Shown here piece after piece: positions 8,796 through 64,000 of a stretch of 64,000 nucleotides of DNA. A program made the position numbers and the translations under genes. The notes below the pieces were generated by a model, which saw only the letters and a program-made list of their open reading frames with translations, had not been told where the DNA came from and searched no databases. This stretch comes from an uncultured Gammaproteobacteria bacterium (GTDB lineage: Bacteria; Patescibacteriota; Patescibacteriia; S139-126): assembly GCA_964540695.1 (NCBI GenBank), contig CAZINS010000001.1, positions 156,826 to 220,825 of the forward strand, given 5' to 3'. Each line of letters opens with the position of its first letter. The first letter of the stretch is position 1.

Positions 8796-8824
8796 ATGAC
8801 ATGATTCTTGTAATTTGTTATAAT
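8796..8824 (+). promoter_or_regulatory. Candidate sigma70-type promoter for the hydrogenase genes; -10 TATAAT ends 7 nt before the ATG (possible leaderless mRNA)
   Basis: -35 ATGACA (8796-8801), 17 nt spacer, -10 TATAAT (8819-8824); no Shine-Dalgarno before ATG 8832. Confidence 0.35.
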
Positions 8825-8831
8825 AAAATCA

Positions 8832-9329
8832 ATGAAAAAAACTTCTGTAAAAACTAAAAAATTGAAAGTCGGTTGGTTTACGTTTAGTTGTTGTGAAGAT
8901 AGTACTGTACTTTTTACTGAATTATTAAACGATCACTGGCAAGACTGGCTACCTTATTTGGATTTCAAACATGCTAAAGTATTAAAATCAAAAAACGAAT
9001 TAACTGAAATGGATGTGGTTTTTGTGGAAGGTGCTATTGCTTCTGAAGCCAAAGCCAAAGAACTAAAAAAAATCAGAGCTAAGGCTAAAATCTTAGTAGC
9101 TGTTGGCGCTTGTGCGGTAACTGGCATGCCTTCAGCTCAACGTAATGAATTCCCTGAAGAAGTTAGACAAGAAATAGATTTTTTACTTACTAAATTCAAC
9201 TACGGAGAAAAAGTAAAAAAACTCGAAGAAATAGTCACGGTTGATGCTAAAGTACCGGGGTGCCCGATGAATGAACAAAAATTCGTGGAACTAATGGAAC
9301 AAATGTTTAAACAATTTAACATCAAATGA
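8832..9329 (+). CDS. [NiFe]-hydrogenase small subunit, minimal NuoB-like form with a single proximal 4Fe-4S site
   Basis: Four conserved Cys contexts (FSCCEDS, GACAVTG, VPGCPMN) typical of NuoB/hydrogenase small subunit; 165 aa; immediately upstream of the large subunit. Confidence 0.7.
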   Translation: MKKTSVKTKKLKVGWFTFSCCEDSTVLFTELLNDHWQDWLPYLDFKHAKVLKSKNELTEMDVVFVEGAIASEAKAKELKKIRAKAKILVAVGACAVTGMPSAQRNEFPEEVRQEIDFLLTKFNYGEKVKKLEEIVTVDAKVPGCPMNEQKFVELMEQMFKQFNIK

Positions 9330-9333
9330 TTTT

Positions 9334-10623
9334 ATGCATTTAATTGATTTTGATTTAAATATCAATGAGATTACCAAAGTTGAAGGTTCGGCTGGACTGG
9401 ATGTTAAAGTGACCAATGGTAAGGTTGAGTATGTTAAATTTAAAGTTCAAGACTACAAAAGATTTTATACTCAAGCTATTCAAGGAAAGCCGATTGCGGC
9501 TGTACCACAACTATTATCTCGTATTTGTGGTACTTGTAGTATTGCTCATTTGATTGCCAGTATTGAAGCGGTGGAAAAAACTTTACAATATAAACCAAGT
9601 GAACAAACAAAAATTTTACGTGCTCTCACCTATCACGGACTAATTATCAGAGATCACGCTTTACATCTTTATGTTTTTGTCTTACCAGATTTATTTAATA
9701 AAGATTCTTTGCTTGATTTTGATGAAACAGACAAGATTCAACACCAACTACTTCATGATACTTTTGCGGTAAAAAGTGCTGGTAACAATTTAGCTAAATA
9801 TACTGCGGGACGCAGTGTCCATGCACCCTTCCCTGTTCCTGGTGGCTTTTTAAAAATACCTGACAATGCAGGTAAACAAGCTATCATCGAAGAAATGGAA
9901 AAAGTTAGACCAGCAGTTTTACGGCTGATTGAATTATTTTTAAATTCAACTGATTCCTTAATTAGGCCAACCAACTACGCGGCTTTAAAAAATGATGATT
10001 ATTCATATCTTGAAGGTAAACTCTGTGATATGAACGGCGTTATTGCTGAAGAAGCGGAATTTCGCAATCATCTTGAACACGTAGTATTGCCTTATTCTCA
10101 AGCCTCAGCCTATACTTTTGCCGGGCAACCATATCGAGTCGGTGCCTTGGCTAGAATAAATCTCAACCAACAGGCACTAAATGAAAGAACAAAAAAAGAT
10201 TGTACTCAAGCTTTAAAAATTTTCCCCTCACACAACGCTTATCATAATAATTTGGCCCAAGCCATTGAAATTCTTCACTCAATTGATGATACAATCACTA
10301 TACTAAAAAATAATGAATTCAAACCAGAAAAACCTGATAAACTTGACTTGCGTGCTGCCACTGGAGTGGGTGTAGTCGAAGCACCTAGAGGAACCCTGTA
10401 CCATAAACTTGAAATAGATGACAAAGGTATAGTTACCAAAGGTGAAGTAATAGTGCCAACGGGTCAAAATCAAATCACGATTGAACTTGATATTGCCGAG
10501 TATATACAAAAAAATTTAAACATGCCAAAAAAAGAGCTGGCTTTAGCTTGTGAAAAAATAATTCGCGCTTACGATCCCTGTATGAGTTGTGCTTCACACT
10601 TTTTGGAAGTTAACTGGCTATAA
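9334..10623 (+). CDS. [NiFe]-hydrogenase large subunit
   Basis: N-terminal RICGTCSIAH (RxCGxCxxxH) and C-terminal DPCMSCASH (DPCxxCxxH) nickel-ligating motifs; 429 aa with short C-terminal extension FLEVNWL after the cleavage His. Confidence 0.9.
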   Translation: MHLIDFDLNINEITKVEGSAGLDVKVTNGKVEYVKFKVQDYKRFYTQAIQGKPIAAVPQLLSRICGTCSIAHLIASIEAVEKTLQYKPSEQTKILRALTYHGLIIRDHALHLYVFVLPDLFNKDSLLDFDETDKIQHQLLHDTFAVKSAGNNLAKYTAGRSVHAPFPVPGGFLKIPDNAGKQAIIEEMEKVRPAVLRLIELFLNSTDSLIRPTNYAALKNDDYSYLEGKLCDMNGVIAEEAEFRNHLEHVVLPYSQASAYTFAGQPYRVGALARINLNQQALNERTKKDCTQALKIFPSHNAYHNNLAQAIEILHSIDDTITILKNNEFKPEKPDKLDLRAATGVGVVEAPRGTLYHKLEIDDKGIVTKGEVIVPTGQNQITIELDIAEYIQKNLNMPKKELALACEKIIRAYDPCMSCASHFLEVNWL

Positions 10624-10984
10624 TTTCCGCCACTTGCCGGGCAATTTTTTCCACTTCTCCTTGTGGTGGTACACCAACTATCTTGATAGTAATATCAGGA
10701 TATATTTTTTTTATTAGCTTTAATTCAGTTGCTAAATCATAATCATGTAAACTTACCCGTTTAGTATCTTTAATTTGATCTAAGTCAGAAATCAATTTAA
10801 CCACAGAAAAATTTCTTACTACATCGATAATCCACCAAATTGACTCACCTAGAGGTATAATTTGTTCTTGGGGATCCTGATGGATAAACTCAGCATGGGG
10901 CAAAAGCTTTTGTAAATGTGGCACTAAACGAAAAGCTAACGAATCTTGAGGTAGATTTGGGTTACCAAATACGGAAATTTTCAT
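10610..10984 (-). CDS. Hydrogenase maturation endopeptidase (HycI/HybD family)
   Basis: 124 aa, VFGNPN start, conserved D...HD (SLHDYD) metal-ligand pattern; convergent with and adjacent to the large subunit. Confidence 0.65.
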   Translation of the reverse strand: MKISVFGNPNLPQDSLAFRLVPHLQKLLPHAEFIHQDPQEQIIPLGESIWWIIDVVRNFSVVKLISDLDQIKDTKRVSLHDYDLATELKLIKKIYPDITIKIVGVPPQGEVEKIARQVAEIIAS

Positions 10985-11742
10985 TTTTGAAATTTAATTT
11001 TTCCTTGCTGAATGTCTTGAGGTTTTTTGATTGATTTAACTTTTTGGGGATGTAAAATATTATCCACTACATTTTGCTTAAAAATATTTTGATTTGTAAA
11101 ATCAATAATAATTTTTTTTCTAATTGTTTCTTTCTGCCACCCCACAGTATAAATATTATTGATCTGTTGTTTATAAATAATACTAGCTAGCTTATCTGAT
11201 TTATAATCAGTTGCGACCACTACCCCAAAATGGTGATACCCAAAATCATTTTCTGAAATTTTTAAAGATGATGGAATTAAAACTTTTTTAAAAACTATCT
11301 TTCCCCAAGGCAACCTACTTTCCAGGTCAGCAAATTTTTGTTGAGAAAAAAAATAAATTTTCTTAACTTGCGAAAAATTTAATAAATGAGCTAGGGCGTA
11401 AAAAGGATTATTTTTTGTAGCAATATTATTATTATGAATGTCAGTAGCATGATCTAAAGCAAAACACTGAAGAATATCAGCTTGAGTTAAGTGGAGTATA
11501 TTTTTTTGCTGAGCATATTTTGCTAAAGTAGCCGGTGCTGCGGTAATAATATGCTGACCTATATCTGAAAGTTTCAAAATTTTGCCAGGTAAACTAAATA
11601 AATCAATATCAGCTCGGCAATCTGGATTTAAAAATAAATAACTAATTAACCGTAAAGCTTCGCGGTCAAGGGTAATTTTATGATAATGAGGGAAAGTATT
11701 TTGCCTAACTTTTTGTAAAATATCAACTATGTTCGTTGGCAT
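10981..11742 (-). CDS. hypothetical protein
   Basis: 253 aa ORF between an EamA transporter and the hydrogenase protease; no motif recognised. Confidence 0.4.
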   Translation of the reverse strand: MPTNIVDILQKVRQNTFPHYHKITLDREALRLISYLFLNPDCRADIDLFSLPGKILKLSDIGQHIITAAPATLAKYAQQKNILHLTQADILQCFALDHATDIHNNNIATKNNPFYALAHLLNFSQVKKIYFFSQQKFADLESRLPWGKIVFKKVLIPSSLKISENDFGYHHFGVVVATDYKSDKLASIIYKQQINNIYTVGWQKETIRKKIIIDFTNQNIFKQNVVDNILHPQKVKSIKKPQDIQQGKIKFQK

Positions 11743-12625
11743 GTTTTTGCTGACCTAAATATTTACTACTAATCAAATAACCACTAGCAAAAATAATTAT
11801 TAAACCTATCATTTGTCCAATACCTAAAGCGGTACGAAAAAAACTAAAATTTAATAAAGCAGTAATTGGCACTGCTATGGTTAAAATAGTAGTCGCCGTA
11901 AAAGCTGGTATAAGTTTTAAACCTTGATAAAAAGTATAAACATAACCAAATAACAGTAGTGAGGTAATTATTACCCAACGCCATTCAATAAAACCAAAAC
12001 TGGTTAATTGTGCATATCCACCTTGCCAAACTAAATAAAACCAAATTAATGCCCCACCCAACAACATACGCGCTAAAGCAACAATATTGGCTGGCAAATC
12101 TTTTAATAATTTTTTGGATATTATTATTTCTACCGACCAAAATAAAGTGGCTATTAAAATTAAAACATCACCATAATTTAAAGAAAACGATTTCATTTTT
12201 AAAAATAAAACTAAACCAAGCATCATAAATACTAAAGAAAGAATATATTTTTTTGATAATTTTTCTTTAAGAAATATAATCCCTAAAAACGCAACATACA
12301 AAAATAAAGTTTTATGAATAAACCCGGCATTTAAACTACTGGTCAACTTTAAACCATGAAAAAATAGTAAAAATGGAATACTGCCACCAAATAAACCTAC
12401 TAACAATAACTTTGGCCATTGCCGTTTGGTAATATTTTTAAATGACAACCATTCTTTAGTAATAACTATAAGAATAAAAAACATAACACCAACTAAAATG
12501 TTTTTTAAGCCAGTAAATAAAGTTGCGTCAATATTATTGACTCCATATTTATTTAAAAAGATGGAAAAACCACTAATTAGTGCGGTAGCAGTGACAAATA
12601 AAACTCCTTGATAATATTTTTGCAT
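11723..12625 (-). CDS. EamA/DMT-family transporter (10 TM)
   Basis: 300 aa, two repeated 5-TM halves typical of the drug/metabolite transporter superfamily. Confidence 0.6.
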   Translation of the reverse strand: MQKYYQGVLFVTATALISGFSIFLNKYGVNNIDATLFTGLKNILVGVMFFILIVITKEWLSFKNITKRQWPKLLLVGLFGGSIPFLLFFHGLKLTSSLNAGFIHKTLFLYVAFLGIIFLKEKLSKKYILSLVFMMLGLVLFLKMKSFSLNYGDVLILIATLFWSVEIIISKKLLKDLPANIVALARMLLGGALIWFYLVWQGGYAQLTSFGFIEWRWVIITSLLLFGYVYTFYQGLKLIPAFTATTILTIAVPITALLNFSFFRTALGIGQMIGLIIIFASGYLISSKYLGQQKHANEHS

Positions 12626-12630
12626 ATTAA

Positions 12631-12813
12631 TTATTTATTATTATTTAATTGAGAAATAGGTACTTTTGCTACGGCAAATTTTTCAGCAATAAATAGCCAA
12701 TCATCTACTTGGCAATCTTCAGTCATTAAGCTTAAATCAACCCAATTACCATCTTCTAACTTAGCTCTATTCCCTTTAGTAGCTATGACTTTTTTTGGTA
12801 TTTGAAAACACAT
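12631..12813 (-). CDS. hypC: Hydrogenase maturation factor HypC/HupF
   Basis: N-terminal MCFQIPKKVIA (MCxxIP signature with Cys2), about 60 aa beta-barrel size, hydrophobic C-terminal FIAEKFAVAKV. Confidence 0.7.
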   Translation of the reverse strand: MCFQIPKKVIATKGNRAKLEDGNWVDLSLMTEDCQVDDWLFIAEKFAVAKVPISQLNNNK

Positions 12814-26209: not shown

Positions 26210-26293
26210 CTTGATTTTATAGTAATGATTTTAGGTAAAATCAGCAAGCTGGCTAAGTTTGTTAGCCAGGTAATATTCCTATACAATAAAGTT

Positions 26294-26740
26294 ATGGAAA
26301 TATTAACCAACAAACAAGCTTTATTCAATTATCTACCTTTACAAAAAATAGAGGCGGGGCTTGTTTTGACCGGGCCGGAAGTAAAATCAGTTAAAATGAA
26401 AAGAGTTGATTTTAAAGGTAGTTATGTGACTATCAAAGATAATCATGCCTGGCTGGTAGGACTACATGTTGCCCCATATCAACCAGCTGGTGGTGTACAA
26501 AAAAACTATGAACCAAAAAGACAAAGAAAACTACTTTTAACTAAAAAAGAAATTAATCTCATCCGGGGACAACTGACCAATAAAGGATTGACAGTTGTCC
26601 CTTTGCGGCTATATACTACCAGGGGTCTGGTGAAACTGGAACTAGCAATAGTCCGTGGTAAAAAACAATTTGATAAAAAAGAAACAATAAAAAAAAGAGA
26701 TACCGACCGCGATATCAGACGCACTTTGAAAGAATACTAG
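26294..26740 (+). CDS. smpB: SsrA-binding protein SmpB
   Basis: MEILTNKQALFNYLPLQKIEAGLVLTGPEVKSVK...matches the SmpB fold; basic C-terminal tail. The ORF-track start 26225 adds 23 non-conserved residues, so the internal ATG is preferred. Lies directly upstream of tmRNA. Confidence 0.8.
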   Translation: MEILTNKQALFNYLPLQKIEAGLVLTGPEVKSVKMKRVDFKGSYVTIKDNHAWLVGLHVAPYQPAGGVQKNYEPKRQRKLLLTKKEINLIRGQLTNKGLTVVPLRLYTTRGLVKLELAIVRGKKQFDKKETIKKRDTDRDIRRTLKEY

Positions 26741-26842: not shown

Positions 26843-27218
26843 GGGGATGTCATCTATTCGCTAAGAAAGTAGAGACGTATGTTCAAGCTGAGCGGCAACT
26901 CATTAAACTACCACAACTATAAGTGCCAATACACTTATGAGCAAAATTAGGAACGCTTTTGCGCTACCTAACTTTGCACTTGCTGTTGCCTAATTAGGCC
27001 ACAGCCATCGCTGAAGTCTGGCTCCAAGATTTCTTAAGCGGTGTCATAACTGGAGCTTGAACGCCGATACGCTGACTATTGTCGTTTGAAATATTGCTCA
27101 GCACCACCAAAAAGTTTTCGCCTGATTTTATCTTTTTGGTTTACCAATCAGGCTAAGTTTGTAAATCATGCGTTAAAACTTTTTTACCACGTGGGTGCAA
27201 AGCCCACCATCTCCACCA
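26843..27218 (+). ncRNA. ssrA: tmRNA (SsrA), one-piece
   Basis: 5' GGGGAUG pairs with 3' CAUCUCC, including a G3:U wobble (alanine identity element). T-arm GUGGG-UGCAAAG-CCCAC, discriminator A, encoded CCA at 27216-27218. Internal tag ORF ends ...PNFALAVA-UAA at 26991-26993. Immediately downstream of smpB. Confidence 0.8.
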
Positions 27219-29204: not shown

Positions 29205-29567
29205 ATGAAAAACAAACTACTACTTGTATTTTTAATATCATTTTTATTTATTCCGATTCTAACTTATGCAACTACTACACAATCTCAAAACACCCAATCA
29301 TCTGACAATACGGTAAAACTAACCAATCCCCTAAGCAGTGACGACCCAGCAATTATTATTGGCAATGTCATAAAAGGTATTTTAGGGCTAACTGGAGTTT
29401 TAGCACTAGCAGCTTTTATAGCTGGTGGAGTAATGTGGATGACTTCAGGTGGTAATGCTGATCGAGTGAAAAAAGGTAGGGATATTCTGGTCTGGGCAAT
29501 TATTGGGCTATTTATAGTCTTTTCCAGCTACAGTATCTTAAAATACGTGTTTGATATTTTAGCCTAA
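29205..29567 (+). CDS. TrbC/VirB2-like small membrane protein (signal peptide plus two TM helices)
   Basis: 120 aa: cleavable signal MKNKLLLVFLISFLFIPILTYA, polar linker, TM1 IIGNVIKGILGLTGVLALAAFIAGGVMWM, short basic loop, TM2 ILVWAIIGLFIVFSSYSI. Same architecture as T4SS pilins. Paralog at 35265-35621. Confidence 0.45.
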   Translation: MKNKLLLVFLISFLFIPILTYATTTQSQNTQSSDNTVKLTNPLSSDDPAIIIGNVIKGILGLTGVLALAAFIAGGVMWMTSGGNADRVKKGRDILVWAIIGLFIVFSSYSILKYVFDILA

Positions 29568-35264: not shown

Positions 35265-35621
35265 TTATGATGTTGCATCTAAAATTACTCTGAAAACAAA
35301 GGTACTAATAGCATAAGCTACAATAATTATTAAAAGACCAATCACCCCAGCAACAATTGTTTTTCTAGCAGTTTCCCCCCGATCAGTACCATAACCACTA
35401 GCTGCCCCCACTACACCATAAATTATAATCAAAACCATTAGTAATCCTAAGATACCTAAGGCAATATTAATTATCCTGGCAATTGTCTCTCTAATATCCC
35501 TCGTCCCCAAACCAATTGCACTACCATAACCCAAACCAAAATCAACTTGAGCAAGAGTGGCTAGGGGTATTAAAAATAAACTTAAAATAGCTAAACCTAA
35601 TATTTGTTTATTTATTTTCAT
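35265..35621 (-). CDS. TrbC/VirB2-like small membrane protein (paralogous architecture to 29205-29567)
   Basis: 118 aa: signal MKINKQILGLAILSLFLIPLATLA, TM1 IINIALGILGLLMVLIIIYGVVGAA, short loop, TM2 IVAGVIGLLIIIVAYAISTFVF. Confidence 0.45.
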   Translation of the reverse strand: MKINKQILGLAILSLFLIPLATLAQVDFGLGYGSAIGLGTRDIRETIARIINIALGILGLLMVLIIIYGVVGAASGYGTDRGETARKTIVAGVIGLLIIIVAYAISTFVFRVILDATS

Positions 35622-63234: not shown

Positions 63235-64000
63235 TTATTCTTCAACTACTAAATTACCAACCATACCCATGGTACGATGTTGTCCGACGCTACAGTAATA
63301 TTCAAATGTGCCGACTTGATCAGCTATAAATTCTACTGAGGTGCTACCGCCGGTATTTACCTTTTCGGTAGCGGCGTTGAACTCATCTATTACCCAATCA
63401 TGAAACCCATCTGTAGAAGTAAAATCTATTTTTACCCTGTCTCCCTTTTTTACTCTGATTTCTTTTTGCGAAAAAGTAAAATTTTTACCAGAAATAGCAA
63501 AAGTTTTTATTTCCTCAACCGGTTCTTCTGTAGTCAATTCTCTATCAGCTTGTACTGCTGTAAAACTTGTCGCCACTATTTGATTATTAACTAACAAGGG
63601 TAAATCGACTCCATCGGGAAATTCAAATTTACCAACTTCCCCCTCATCAACATGAATAATTGCCCATAAAACACTACTGCTAGTAGTAGTACTTATTGGA
63701 ACTGATAAATCACTAAATAAACCAGAAGTTAGAGCTAAATTTCCTATAACCTCTTTGGGCATACCACTTTCATCACTATTATAAATAACCAACCAACTGG
63801 GTTGAGTGGTGTATAAATTATCAACAATTACCTTTCCGTCTGCAATTGACTGAGCTGACAACTGAATAAATGGCTGTTGGTCATTGGTTGTATCAAGGGG
63901 CAAAACGCCAACTTGATTATTATTTGTTAATGGAGTAACTGTTTCATCTTTTGGTTGCTGATTGATTACCAATACAACCGCAAGTAAAACTAAAATGGCT
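63235..64000 (-). CDS. Cupredoxin (plastocyanin/amicyanin-like type-1 copper protein), N-terminus beyond window end
   Basis: C-terminal FHDW...YYCSVGQHRTMGM supplies the His...Cys...His...Met ligand set. Reading frame remains open past 64000 into a hydrophobic signal/TM region. Confidence 0.65.
   Translation of the reverse strand, partial: AILVLLAVVLVINQQPKDETVTPLTNNNQVGVLPLDTTNDQQPFIQLSAQSIADGKVIVDNLYTTQPSWLVIYNSDESGMPKEVIGNLALTSGLFSDLSVPISTTTSSSVLWAIIHVDEGEVGKFEFPDGVDLPLLVNNQIVATSFTAVQADRELTTEEPVEEIKTFAISGKNFTFSQKEIRVKKGDRVKIDFTSTDGFHDWVIDEFNAATEKVNTGGSTSVEFIADQVGTFEYYCSVGQHRTMGMVGNLVVEE

Follow-up and report, generated by a model that had tools for sequence, protein, structure and literature searches.

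The [NiFe] hydrogenases of candidate phyla radiation (CPR) bacteria that are related to group 3b have been divided into two types, hyd1 and hyd2 (Jaffe et al., 2020, BMC Biol 18:69, PMC7304191). In that paper, hyd1 is described with beta and gamma subunits, which are co-located with hyd1 only. Hyd2 is described there as a 3b-related clade specific to CPR, in which the small subunit is truncated (mean, 164 amino acids [aa]), a hypC-like gene is nearby, and no beta or gamma subunit is co-located; PF07992 flavoproteins and an Fe-S family are found near some hyd2 loci, and the function of hyd2 "remains uncertain." A 2024 study dealt with four-subunit 3b enzymes of CPR bacteria, and we found no later paper characterizing hyd2. 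Here, we analyzed a hydrogenase locus in a 64,000-nucleotide stretch of contig CAZINS010000001.1 from an uncultured patescibacterium; this whole stretch is referred to below as the window. Like hyd2 as portrayed in that paper, the locus has a Patescibacteria host, a 3b-related large subunit, a small subunit of 165 aa (compared to the mean of 164), a hypC-like gene, and no beta or gamma gene. Judged from its sequence, it is one more member of the hyd2 type, a configuration that had already been published. The initial annotation, made from the DNA letters, had asked what the physiological partner of this enzyme is and where the rest of its maturation machinery is encoded; the question is real, but it is not a new one, since hyd2 was published in 2020. 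We consider it somewhat better than an even bet that the locus encodes a soluble heterodimeric hyd2-type hydrogenase that exchanges electrons with a small 4Fe-4S ferredoxin, with the partner and the hyp genes located elsewhere in the genome. Several features reported below go unmentioned for hyd2 in the available text of Jaffe et al.: the tandem-Cys set of the small subunit, the HycI-like protease, the DUF6390 or 253-aa protein with its oligonucleotide/oligosaccharide-binding (OB) barrel, EamA, and the DPANN-labelled loci.

The window has a G+C content of about 33%, is of Patescibacteria type, and contains, among others, tRNA synthetases, type IV pilus genes, and small open reading frames (ORFs). 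Two same-direction, nearly abutting plus-strand genes encode the hydrogenase (8832-9329 and 9334-10623), and facing them is a compact minus-strand operon of four genes (10610-12813) for proteins of 60, 300, 253, and 124 aa. The last of these genes, which encodes a protease-like protein, is convergent with the large-subunit gene, and the 3' ends of the two overlap by 14 nucleotides (nt). All genes were found where the initial annotation had placed them:

8796-8824, plus strand: sigma-70-like promoter match with an extended -10 element (consensus match, prediction only)
8832-9329, plus strand: hyd2-type [NiFe]-hydrogenase small subunit, 165 aa (PF01058, 74.5 bits)
9334-10623, plus strand: [NiFe]-hydrogenase large subunit, 429 aa, group 3b-related (PF00374, 104.2 bits)
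10610-10984, minus strand: putative divergent HycI-like maturation endopeptidase, 124 aa (family-level evidence)
10981-11742, minus strand: unk253, 253 aa (no family match; OB barrel in the structure model)
11723-12625, minus strand: EamA/drug/metabolite transporter (DMT)-family membrane transporter, 300 aa (PF00892, 128 bits)
12631-12813, minus strand: HypC-like chaperone variant, 60 aa (PF01455, 28.1 bits; cutoff, 28.5)

Four independent assemblies carry this locus in identical form, with the same large-subunit protein, gene order, and gene lengths and with intact ORFs. For comparison, we assembled 80 related loci from species-representative genomes, whose large subunits are 54 to 92% identical, and labelled their genes by ORF clustering and hidden Markov models (HMMs). 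Many CPR lineages are represented among these loci, which share a conserved gene order. Closed or near-closed genomes that contain hyd2 include CAZUKA010000001.1, DYGA01000002.1, CP064994.1, and OY969931.1.

By its motifs, the large subunit lacks none of the sequence features expected of a working Ni-Fe site. Its PF00374 score of 104.2 bits compares with a curated Pfam cutoff of 25.8, and both Ni-binding Cys pairs, already recognized in the initial annotation, are intact: L1, RICGTCSIAH (C65 and C68), and L2, DPCMSCASH (C416 and C419). L1, L2, the N-terminal E17-G18, and the EAPRG segment showed no variation among 16 relatives that are 56 to 79% identical, and L1 and L2 align with the corresponding motifs of the solved structures 5yxy and 9nez. 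More than 6,000 homologues were found; the best 120 are all 427 to 461 aa long, and the closest relatives with a name belong to the Patescibacteria, Candidatus Paceibacter among them. On the combined basis of similarity ranking and the published tree of Jaffe et al., the large subunit is nearest to group 3b. In the NCBIfam ranking, ShyA (232 bits) and HydA (210 bits) preceded VhuA (137 bits) and FrhA (120 bits), and the top solved relatives were HyhL of Thermococcus kodakarensis (5yxy) and the SH1 alpha subunit of Pyrococcus furiosus (9nez and 9e15), each aligning over the full length with 191 to 196 bits. Nonetheless, the scores lie far under the equivalog cutoffs of 700 and 880 (for ShyA, 232 versus 700), and the protein is not an orthologue. 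Beyond the L2 His, the C-terminal tail has seven residues, FLEVNWL, and the protease-like gene adjoins. The very short C-terminal extension noted initially is therefore confirmed, but it is nothing unusual: solved 3b large subunits have just ~2 to 4 residues beyond the aligned His, so a short tail is normal for group 3b.

SH1 and SH2 of P. furiosus and Hyh of T. kodakarensis share with the window enzyme the same L1 and L2 Cys pairs and the very short C-terminal extension. These three are alpha-delta-beta-gamma tetramers, whereas the window enzyme has no beta or gamma genes. The locus could be read as a conventional group 3b (sulf)hydrogenase of four subunits, with beta and gamma encoded elsewhere and NAD(P)H as the direct partner, given that the ShyA and HydA models and the solved 3b enzymes are the nearest to the large subunit, that CPR bacteria do have the four-subunit hyd1, and that only 64 kb of the genome is visible. 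The gap between the ShyA score of 232 and the equivalog threshold of 700 speaks against it, and so does the small subunit. 3b delta subunits carry three clusters, with a CxxC N-terminal ligand pair, and in group 3 small subunits a C-terminal domain holds the medial and distal clusters that wire the proximal cluster to beta. A three-cluster delta subunit of ~240 to 260 aa would be expected of a 3b enzyme, and those of SH1, SH2, and Hyh have 256 to 266 aa; the window protein has 165 aa, one cluster, and a CC pair, and it lacks the C-terminal ferredoxin-like domain. Moreover, no beta- or gamma-like family was among the recurrent neighbors in the 80 loci, and Jaffe et al. (PMC7304191) saw beta and gamma next to hyd1 only. 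We give the four-subunit enzyme a slim chance of being correct.

Of the HydD, VhuG, and FrhG models, the small subunit covers no more than about the first 150 positions (3 to 150 of 261 for HydD). Across 78 sequences of its family, exactly four Cys are conserved (C20, C21, C94, and C144), and the protein stops ~22 to 25 aa past the GCP motif. Given these four Cys and the early end after GCP, there is space for one [4Fe-4S] cluster only, the proximal one, which agrees with the single proximal cluster that the initial annotation had assigned to this 165-aa protein. The median small-subunit length was 168 aa across 77 related loci. An assembly artifact as the cause of the short small subunit was ruled out by the four identical assemblies and the 78 equally short family members.

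Small subunits of similar length are known from other systems. HoxY of group 3d (5xf9_C, 189 aa; E = 1.6e-9) and the small subunit of Acetomicrobium HydABCSL (7t2r_E, 179 aa; E = 7.8e-7) are weakly similar to the window protein and likewise keep only the proximal cluster. Both pass electrons to Fe-S/flavin subunits of the same operon, HoxFU and HydABC, in a stable complex; in contrast, the window has no such subunits. The first two cluster ligands of the window protein form a tandem Cys-Cys pair, FSCCED, which is kept in 71 to 74 of the 78 sequences. It resembles LSCCYVE of NuoB, whereas HycG (group 4) and VhuG (group 3) have CxxC. NuoB (complex I, cluster N2) and HycG belong to the same single-cluster PF01058 family, and all four Cys columns are invariant when the window family is aligned with E. 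coli NuoB and HycG. Together with weak NuoB matches at the small-subunit C terminus in NCBIfam, this NuoB-type tandem-Cys cluster could suggest a group 4-like energy-converting module. The catalytic partner, however, is a 3b-like large subunit and not NuoD or HycE: in phmmer searches, large subunits of the related loci reached at most ~26 bits with E. coli HycE, compared to 232 bits for ShyA. Furthermore, there is no membrane arm, membrane subunits were found neither in the window nor among the recurrent neighbors, and, the tandem Cys aside, the small subunit matches those of group 3 best. We regard an energy-converting module of this kind as extremely improbable.

We searched the window for partners with Pfam scans of the other ORFs, phmmer with E. 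coli HypA to HypF, and HMMs of the neighbor families. Pfam scans and phmmer detected no hypA, hypB, hypD, hypE, or hypF among all ORFs of the 64 kb, and Pfam scans detected no HydB/HydG-like, diaphorase, membrane, or cytochrome subunits there, in agreement with what the initial annotation had said of the window. Ferredoxin, ferredoxin reductase, 2-oxoacid oxidoreductase, NifU, and NifS were likewise absent from the 64 kb, in which the sole flavoprotein is encoded by a thioredoxin-reductase-like gene 29 kb away. The initial annotation had allowed that partner and hyp genes might be found immediately outside the window, making this an ordinary group 3 or 4 enzyme. In the closest long contig (CAZUKA010000001.1; 716,806 bp; large subunit 92% identical), none occurs within 10 kb on either side. 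The proteins encoded at the window ends had no exact match on record.

The neighborhoods of the related loci point to a candidate partner. Neighbors were counted in the 56 of the 80 loci that have at least 3 kb on each side:

Protease: 54 of 56 loci
DUF6390 (38 loci) or the 253-aa family (2 loci) in the next slot: 40 of 56 loci
EamA: 29 of 56 loci
HypC-like: 9 of 56 loci
Ferredoxin or ferredoxin reductase: 28 of 56 loci
2-oxoacid:acceptor oxidoreductase: 13 of 56 loci
None of the last three: 26 of 56 loci

The neighboring ferredoxin is a single-cluster Fer4_13/15 protein, and the neighboring reductase is a Pyr_redox_2/Reductase_C flavoprotein that in NCBIfam matches best with PadH and with HcaD and AndAa, which are ferredoxin-NAD+ reductases. 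The small-subunit gene has the reductase gene immediately 5' of it, in the same orientation, in 11 loci; in most of them the ferredoxin gene comes first, and close fd-fdr-hydS-hydL junctions occur in, for example, L046, L071, and L076. Locus L029 combines the 253-aa/EamA/HypC accessory set of the window with a ferredoxin gene immediately 5' of the small-subunit gene. In 17 loci, the surroundings of hyd2 include genes for both subunits (alpha and beta) of a 2-oxoacid:acceptor oxidoreductase and for an ADP-forming acyl-CoA synthetase, and in most of these loci they separate the fd-fdr pair from the hydrogenase genes; 17 to 20 loci are flanked by NifS and NifU. The larger module thus seen consists of nifS-nifU-fd-fdr, a divergent acyl-CoA synthetase plus oxidoreductase beta/alpha, and hydS-hydL (L037, L043 to L050, L054, L061, L067, L069, L075, L077, and L083). 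Its predicted gene products make it a compact island of fermentation genes that leads from pyruvate to acetate, ATP, and H2.

In the heterodimer that we favor, the exposed single cluster would trade electrons directly with a small soluble 4Fe-4S ferredoxin; with no built-in electron wire, such direct exchange is the most likely route. The enzyme would get rid of reductant from fermentation in the form of H2, and a ferredoxin-NAD+ reductase would connect it reversibly to NAD(P)H. Because the operons of relatives include ferredoxin, the reductase, 2-oxoacid oxidoreductase, and acyl-CoA synthetase, H2 disposal is the most likely role. The ferredoxin, the reductase, and hypABDEF are presumed to be encoded elsewhere on the chromosome. 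Alternatively, NAD(P)H could be the main partner, with the separate ferredoxin-NAD+ reductase and ferredoxin acting as a detachable diaphorase, much as in a class I P450 chain. The fd-fdr-hydS-hydL arrangement in the 11 loci, the presence of ferredoxin or its reductase near half of the well-flanked loci (28/56), and the similarity of the reductase to ferredoxin-NAD+ reductases and PadH are all consistent with such a chain. On the other hand, neither gene is near the locus in this lineage, and many of the loci with ferredoxin and reductase genes also have 2-oxoacid:ferredoxin oxidoreductase, which would feed ferredoxin directly. We regard NAD(P)H as main partner as unlikely, and the scheme is a variant of the ferredoxin-linked heterodimer rather than an exclusive rival.

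Judging from its predicted products, the minus-strand operon (hypC-like, eamA, the 253-aa gene, and the protease gene) is an accessory set dedicated to the hydrogenase. The 124-aa window protein had as its best NCBIfam match a NiFeSe maturation protease with an E value of only 0.009 and no Pfam match at E ≤ 1. It scored 141 bits on the HMM of its own family, which occurs in 66 of the 80 related loci, and 21 of 26 family members match PF01750 HycI (best E, 3.8e-5). G7, N8, D14, D54, and H80 are invariant in these 26 sequences. All five are collinear with GNSMMGDD, IVDA, and THN of E. coli HycI in a low-scoring alignment; D14, D54, and H80 correspond to the two acidic residues and the His that bind the metal in HycI. 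In the related loci, the protease gene is almost always directly 3' of the large-subunit gene and convergent with it. A profile search of the family against the PDB returned neither HycI nor HybD, nor any other match, hhalign with E. coli HycI gave a probability of 0.2%, and a single-sequence AlphaFold2 model (predicted local distance difference test [pLDDT], 47.7) was unusable. We accepted the protein as a putative, very divergent HycI-like endopeptidase. The HycI-like protease that the initial annotation had placed on the opposite strand is thus upheld at the family level, but the window protein itself has no Pfam match. In the proposed scheme, it would cut off the seven-residue C-terminal tail of the large subunit after metal insertion.

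The 60-aa HypC-like protein keeps the N-terminal MCFQIP, with the Met-Cys of the MCxxxP motif, and falls under the cutoffs, narrowly for PF01455 (28.1 versus 28.5) and clearly for TIGR00074 (23.1 versus 48). Where E. coli HypC has VHVGF, it has FIAEKF, so that the conserved His (His51) is replaced. A HypC-like gene therefore stands on the opposite strand as first annotated, but it encodes a variant without the conserved His. When E. coli HypC and 11 copies from the loci were aligned, the copies adjacent to EamA were all without the His, whereas those beside hypDEF retain it. The His-less form with Cys2 kept, beside EamA, was seen in the window and in L009, L010, L029, L040, L052, L053, L081, and L088; His-bearing HypC was seen beside hypDEF in L019 and on the plus strand in the Moranbacteria loci L022 and L025. 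There appear to be two functional HypC classes in these lineages, as judged from this residue pattern. Compared with canonical HycI/HybD and HypC/HupF, the window versions share the GN..D/D/H pattern and the N-terminal Met-Cys, respectively, yet they are highly divergent. The EamA gene is near hyd2 in 36 of the 80 loci (29 of the 56 well-flanked ones) and is thus a conserved part of the accessory operon of the hydrogenase. No nickel transporter is known to belong to the EamA/DMT family.

Unlike the canonical Hyp pathway, the operon has a longer protein with a HypC-like OB domain, unk253 or DUF6390, inserted in it. The 253-aa protein had no Pfam or NCBIfam family match, and its family is very small (23 proteins; 17 clusters at E < 1e-10 among 1.84 billion representatives in an exhaustive profile search); an identical copy of the protein (P0121) is encoded on a contig of 286,565 bp. 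In its confident structure model (pLDDT, 86.5; predicted template modeling score, 0.84), an N-terminal domain of helices is followed by an OB barrel (residues 122 to 179) and by C-terminal helices. The helical domain has the conserved Cys/His motifs NPDC, ITAAPxT, CFxxDH, and YALxH; the barrel carries a HypC-like xxHHFGVV segment, and three weak relatives from the exhaustive search match PF01455 HupF_HypC precisely in the OB region. Together with the HypC-like protein, unk253 may serve as a chaperone.

In most relatives, the slot of unk253 is held by DUF6390, whose gene directly follows the protease gene in 44 of the 80 hyd2 loci (L014 to L086, e.g., L082:20280-21071 and L046:11633-12724) and is absent from the window. 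That unk253 is itself a divergent DUF6390 (PF19927) was not supported: hmmsearch gave no match, hhalign gave 1.7%, 16.8%, and 2.5%, and DUF6390 was not among the proteins returned by the exhaustive profile search. Apart from their place in the gene order, all that the two share is a HypC-like segment, GDxxxxHxG. All 31 sampled DUF6390 members match PF19927, and 5 of them weakly match PF01455. HypC in its entirety aligned with the C-terminal third of DUF6390 (hhalign, 64.5%; E = 6.3e-5), so that the invariant CRISWG falls on MCxxIPG and GDxISIHW on GDyVxVHxG of HypC. An invariant Cys of DUF6390 thereby sits at the position of HypC Cys2; overall, the family has four Cys that are invariant or nearly so, along with several His. 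We found no paper mentioning DUF6390. Owing to its gene slot and its HypC alignment with Cys2, DUF6390 is a candidate new hydrogenase accessory factor. A more far-reaching view, which we put forward tentatively as possible if doubtful, is that the slot gene (DUF6390 or unk253) encodes an unrecognized maturation factor in which a HypC-like OB domain and a Cys/His-rich domain are joined. Along with the His-less HypC, EamA (possibly for metal supply), and the divergent protease, it would make up a streamlined, lineage-specific maturation kit that might replace part of HypA/HypB or other Hyp functions, and the enzyme, with its NuoB-type cluster, would rank as the smallest ferredoxin-dependent [NiFe] hydrogenase in nature.

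Using E. coli Hyp proteins as phmmer queries, we found hypD, hypE, and hypF adjoining hyd2 in L012 (16-3725; titled Moraniibacteriota) and L019 (2630-7523; titled Bdellovibrionales), with hypC also present in L019; hypA and hypB were undetected in all 80 loci by the same searches. Since hypDEF stand beside hyd2 in these two loci, at least some carriers of hyd2 use the standard cyanide/CO-ligand machinery.

Several observations weigh against a working, ferredoxin-linked heterodimer at this locus. The window has no ferredoxin, reductase, 2-oxoacid oxidoreductase, or hypABDEF, nor do the same-genus loci L009 and L010 within 10 kb; 26 of the 56 well-flanked loci are without such a partner nearby, and the neighborhoods of other lineages are circumstantial evidence here. 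Among the best 120 HypD matches, none was tied to this lineage, a result that is uninformative and not evidence of absence. The protease call is weak for the window protein itself (no Pfam or PDB match, the hhalign value of 0.2%, and an unusable model), and the HypC-like protein is under curated cutoffs and without its conserved His. If hypDEF were truly missing, the large subunit could not receive its cofactor, and the locus could be a decaying or noncatalytic remnant, either a relic or a protein with an H2-sensing or scaffold role. The absence of hypABDEF from the window and from the 10 kb around hyd2 in the same-genus relatives, the uninformative HypD search, and the His-less HypC variant are compatible with such a remnant. 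However, the catalytic motifs are invariant across relatives 56 to 79% identical; the protease, HypC-like, and accessory genes are kept and syntenic across many phyla; and the ORFs are intact in all four identical assemblies. In addition, hypD, hypE, and hypF do stand beside hyd2 in L012 and L019 (with hypC in L019), and no sensor kinase or regulator genes were among the recurrent neighbors. We consider a remnant very unlikely.

Hyd2-type loci were also found under archaeal record titles, namely Woesearchaeota (L041), Nanoarchaeia (L088), Micrarchaeota (protein P0101), and "Methanosarcinales." In L041, L088, L053, L070, and P0101, the large subunit is 53 to 57% identical, and the same short small subunit and protease are present; the HypD search shows a mixed CPR/DPANN clade. 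This distribution suggests that hyd2 may have been exchanged between CPR and DPANN, groups of ultra-small organisms. Occurring across many CPR lineages and in some DPANN-labelled loci, the single-cluster heterodimer is probably a main reductant-disposal route of ultra-small fermenters, and a hydrogenase this small would be an attractive minimal scaffold for enzyme engineering. With the type itself already published, the points of most interest here are the proposed ferredoxin partner and the accessory genes, which encode DUF6390 or the 253-aa protein, His-less HypC, and EamA.

Upstream of the hydrogenase genes, ATGACA-17-TGTTATAAT at 8796-8824 agrees with the promoter consensus at 11 of 12 positions, has the extended TG, and ends 7 nt before the small-subunit ATG, which is not preceded by a Shine-Dalgarno motif. 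A leaderless start of the hydrogenase transcript, as proposed in the initial annotation, is plausible from this spacing; however, such consensus matches are not enriched in the AT-rich region (28 found versus 23.1 expected), and the arrangement recurs at other genes. A TGnTATAAT-like box lies 6 to 9 nt 5' of several window starts (e.g., 6672, 15885, 35621, 37501, and 48698), and only 13 of 64 window genes have a Shine-Dalgarno-like motif. This pattern suggests that leaderless or near-leaderless transcripts may be widespread in this genome; the start at the hydrogenase, if real, would be a genome-wide habit and not specific to the operon.

Elsewhere in the window, a tmRNA gene (26843-27218, plus strand; Rfam RF00023, 84 bits) that ARAGORN did not report is directly 3' of smpB (26225-26740). 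Two small proteins of a type IV secretion pilin family (PF18895 / TrbC-VirB2) are encoded at 29205-29567 (plus strand) and 35265-35621 (minus strand), both far from the large type IV pilus cluster at ~45 to 58 kb. Finally, the gene at 63235-63972 (minus strand) encodes a protein that joins a DUF7282 domain to a copper-binding domain of the cupredoxin/plastocyanin-like kind, which is unexpected in a presumably fermentative ultra-small bacterium.

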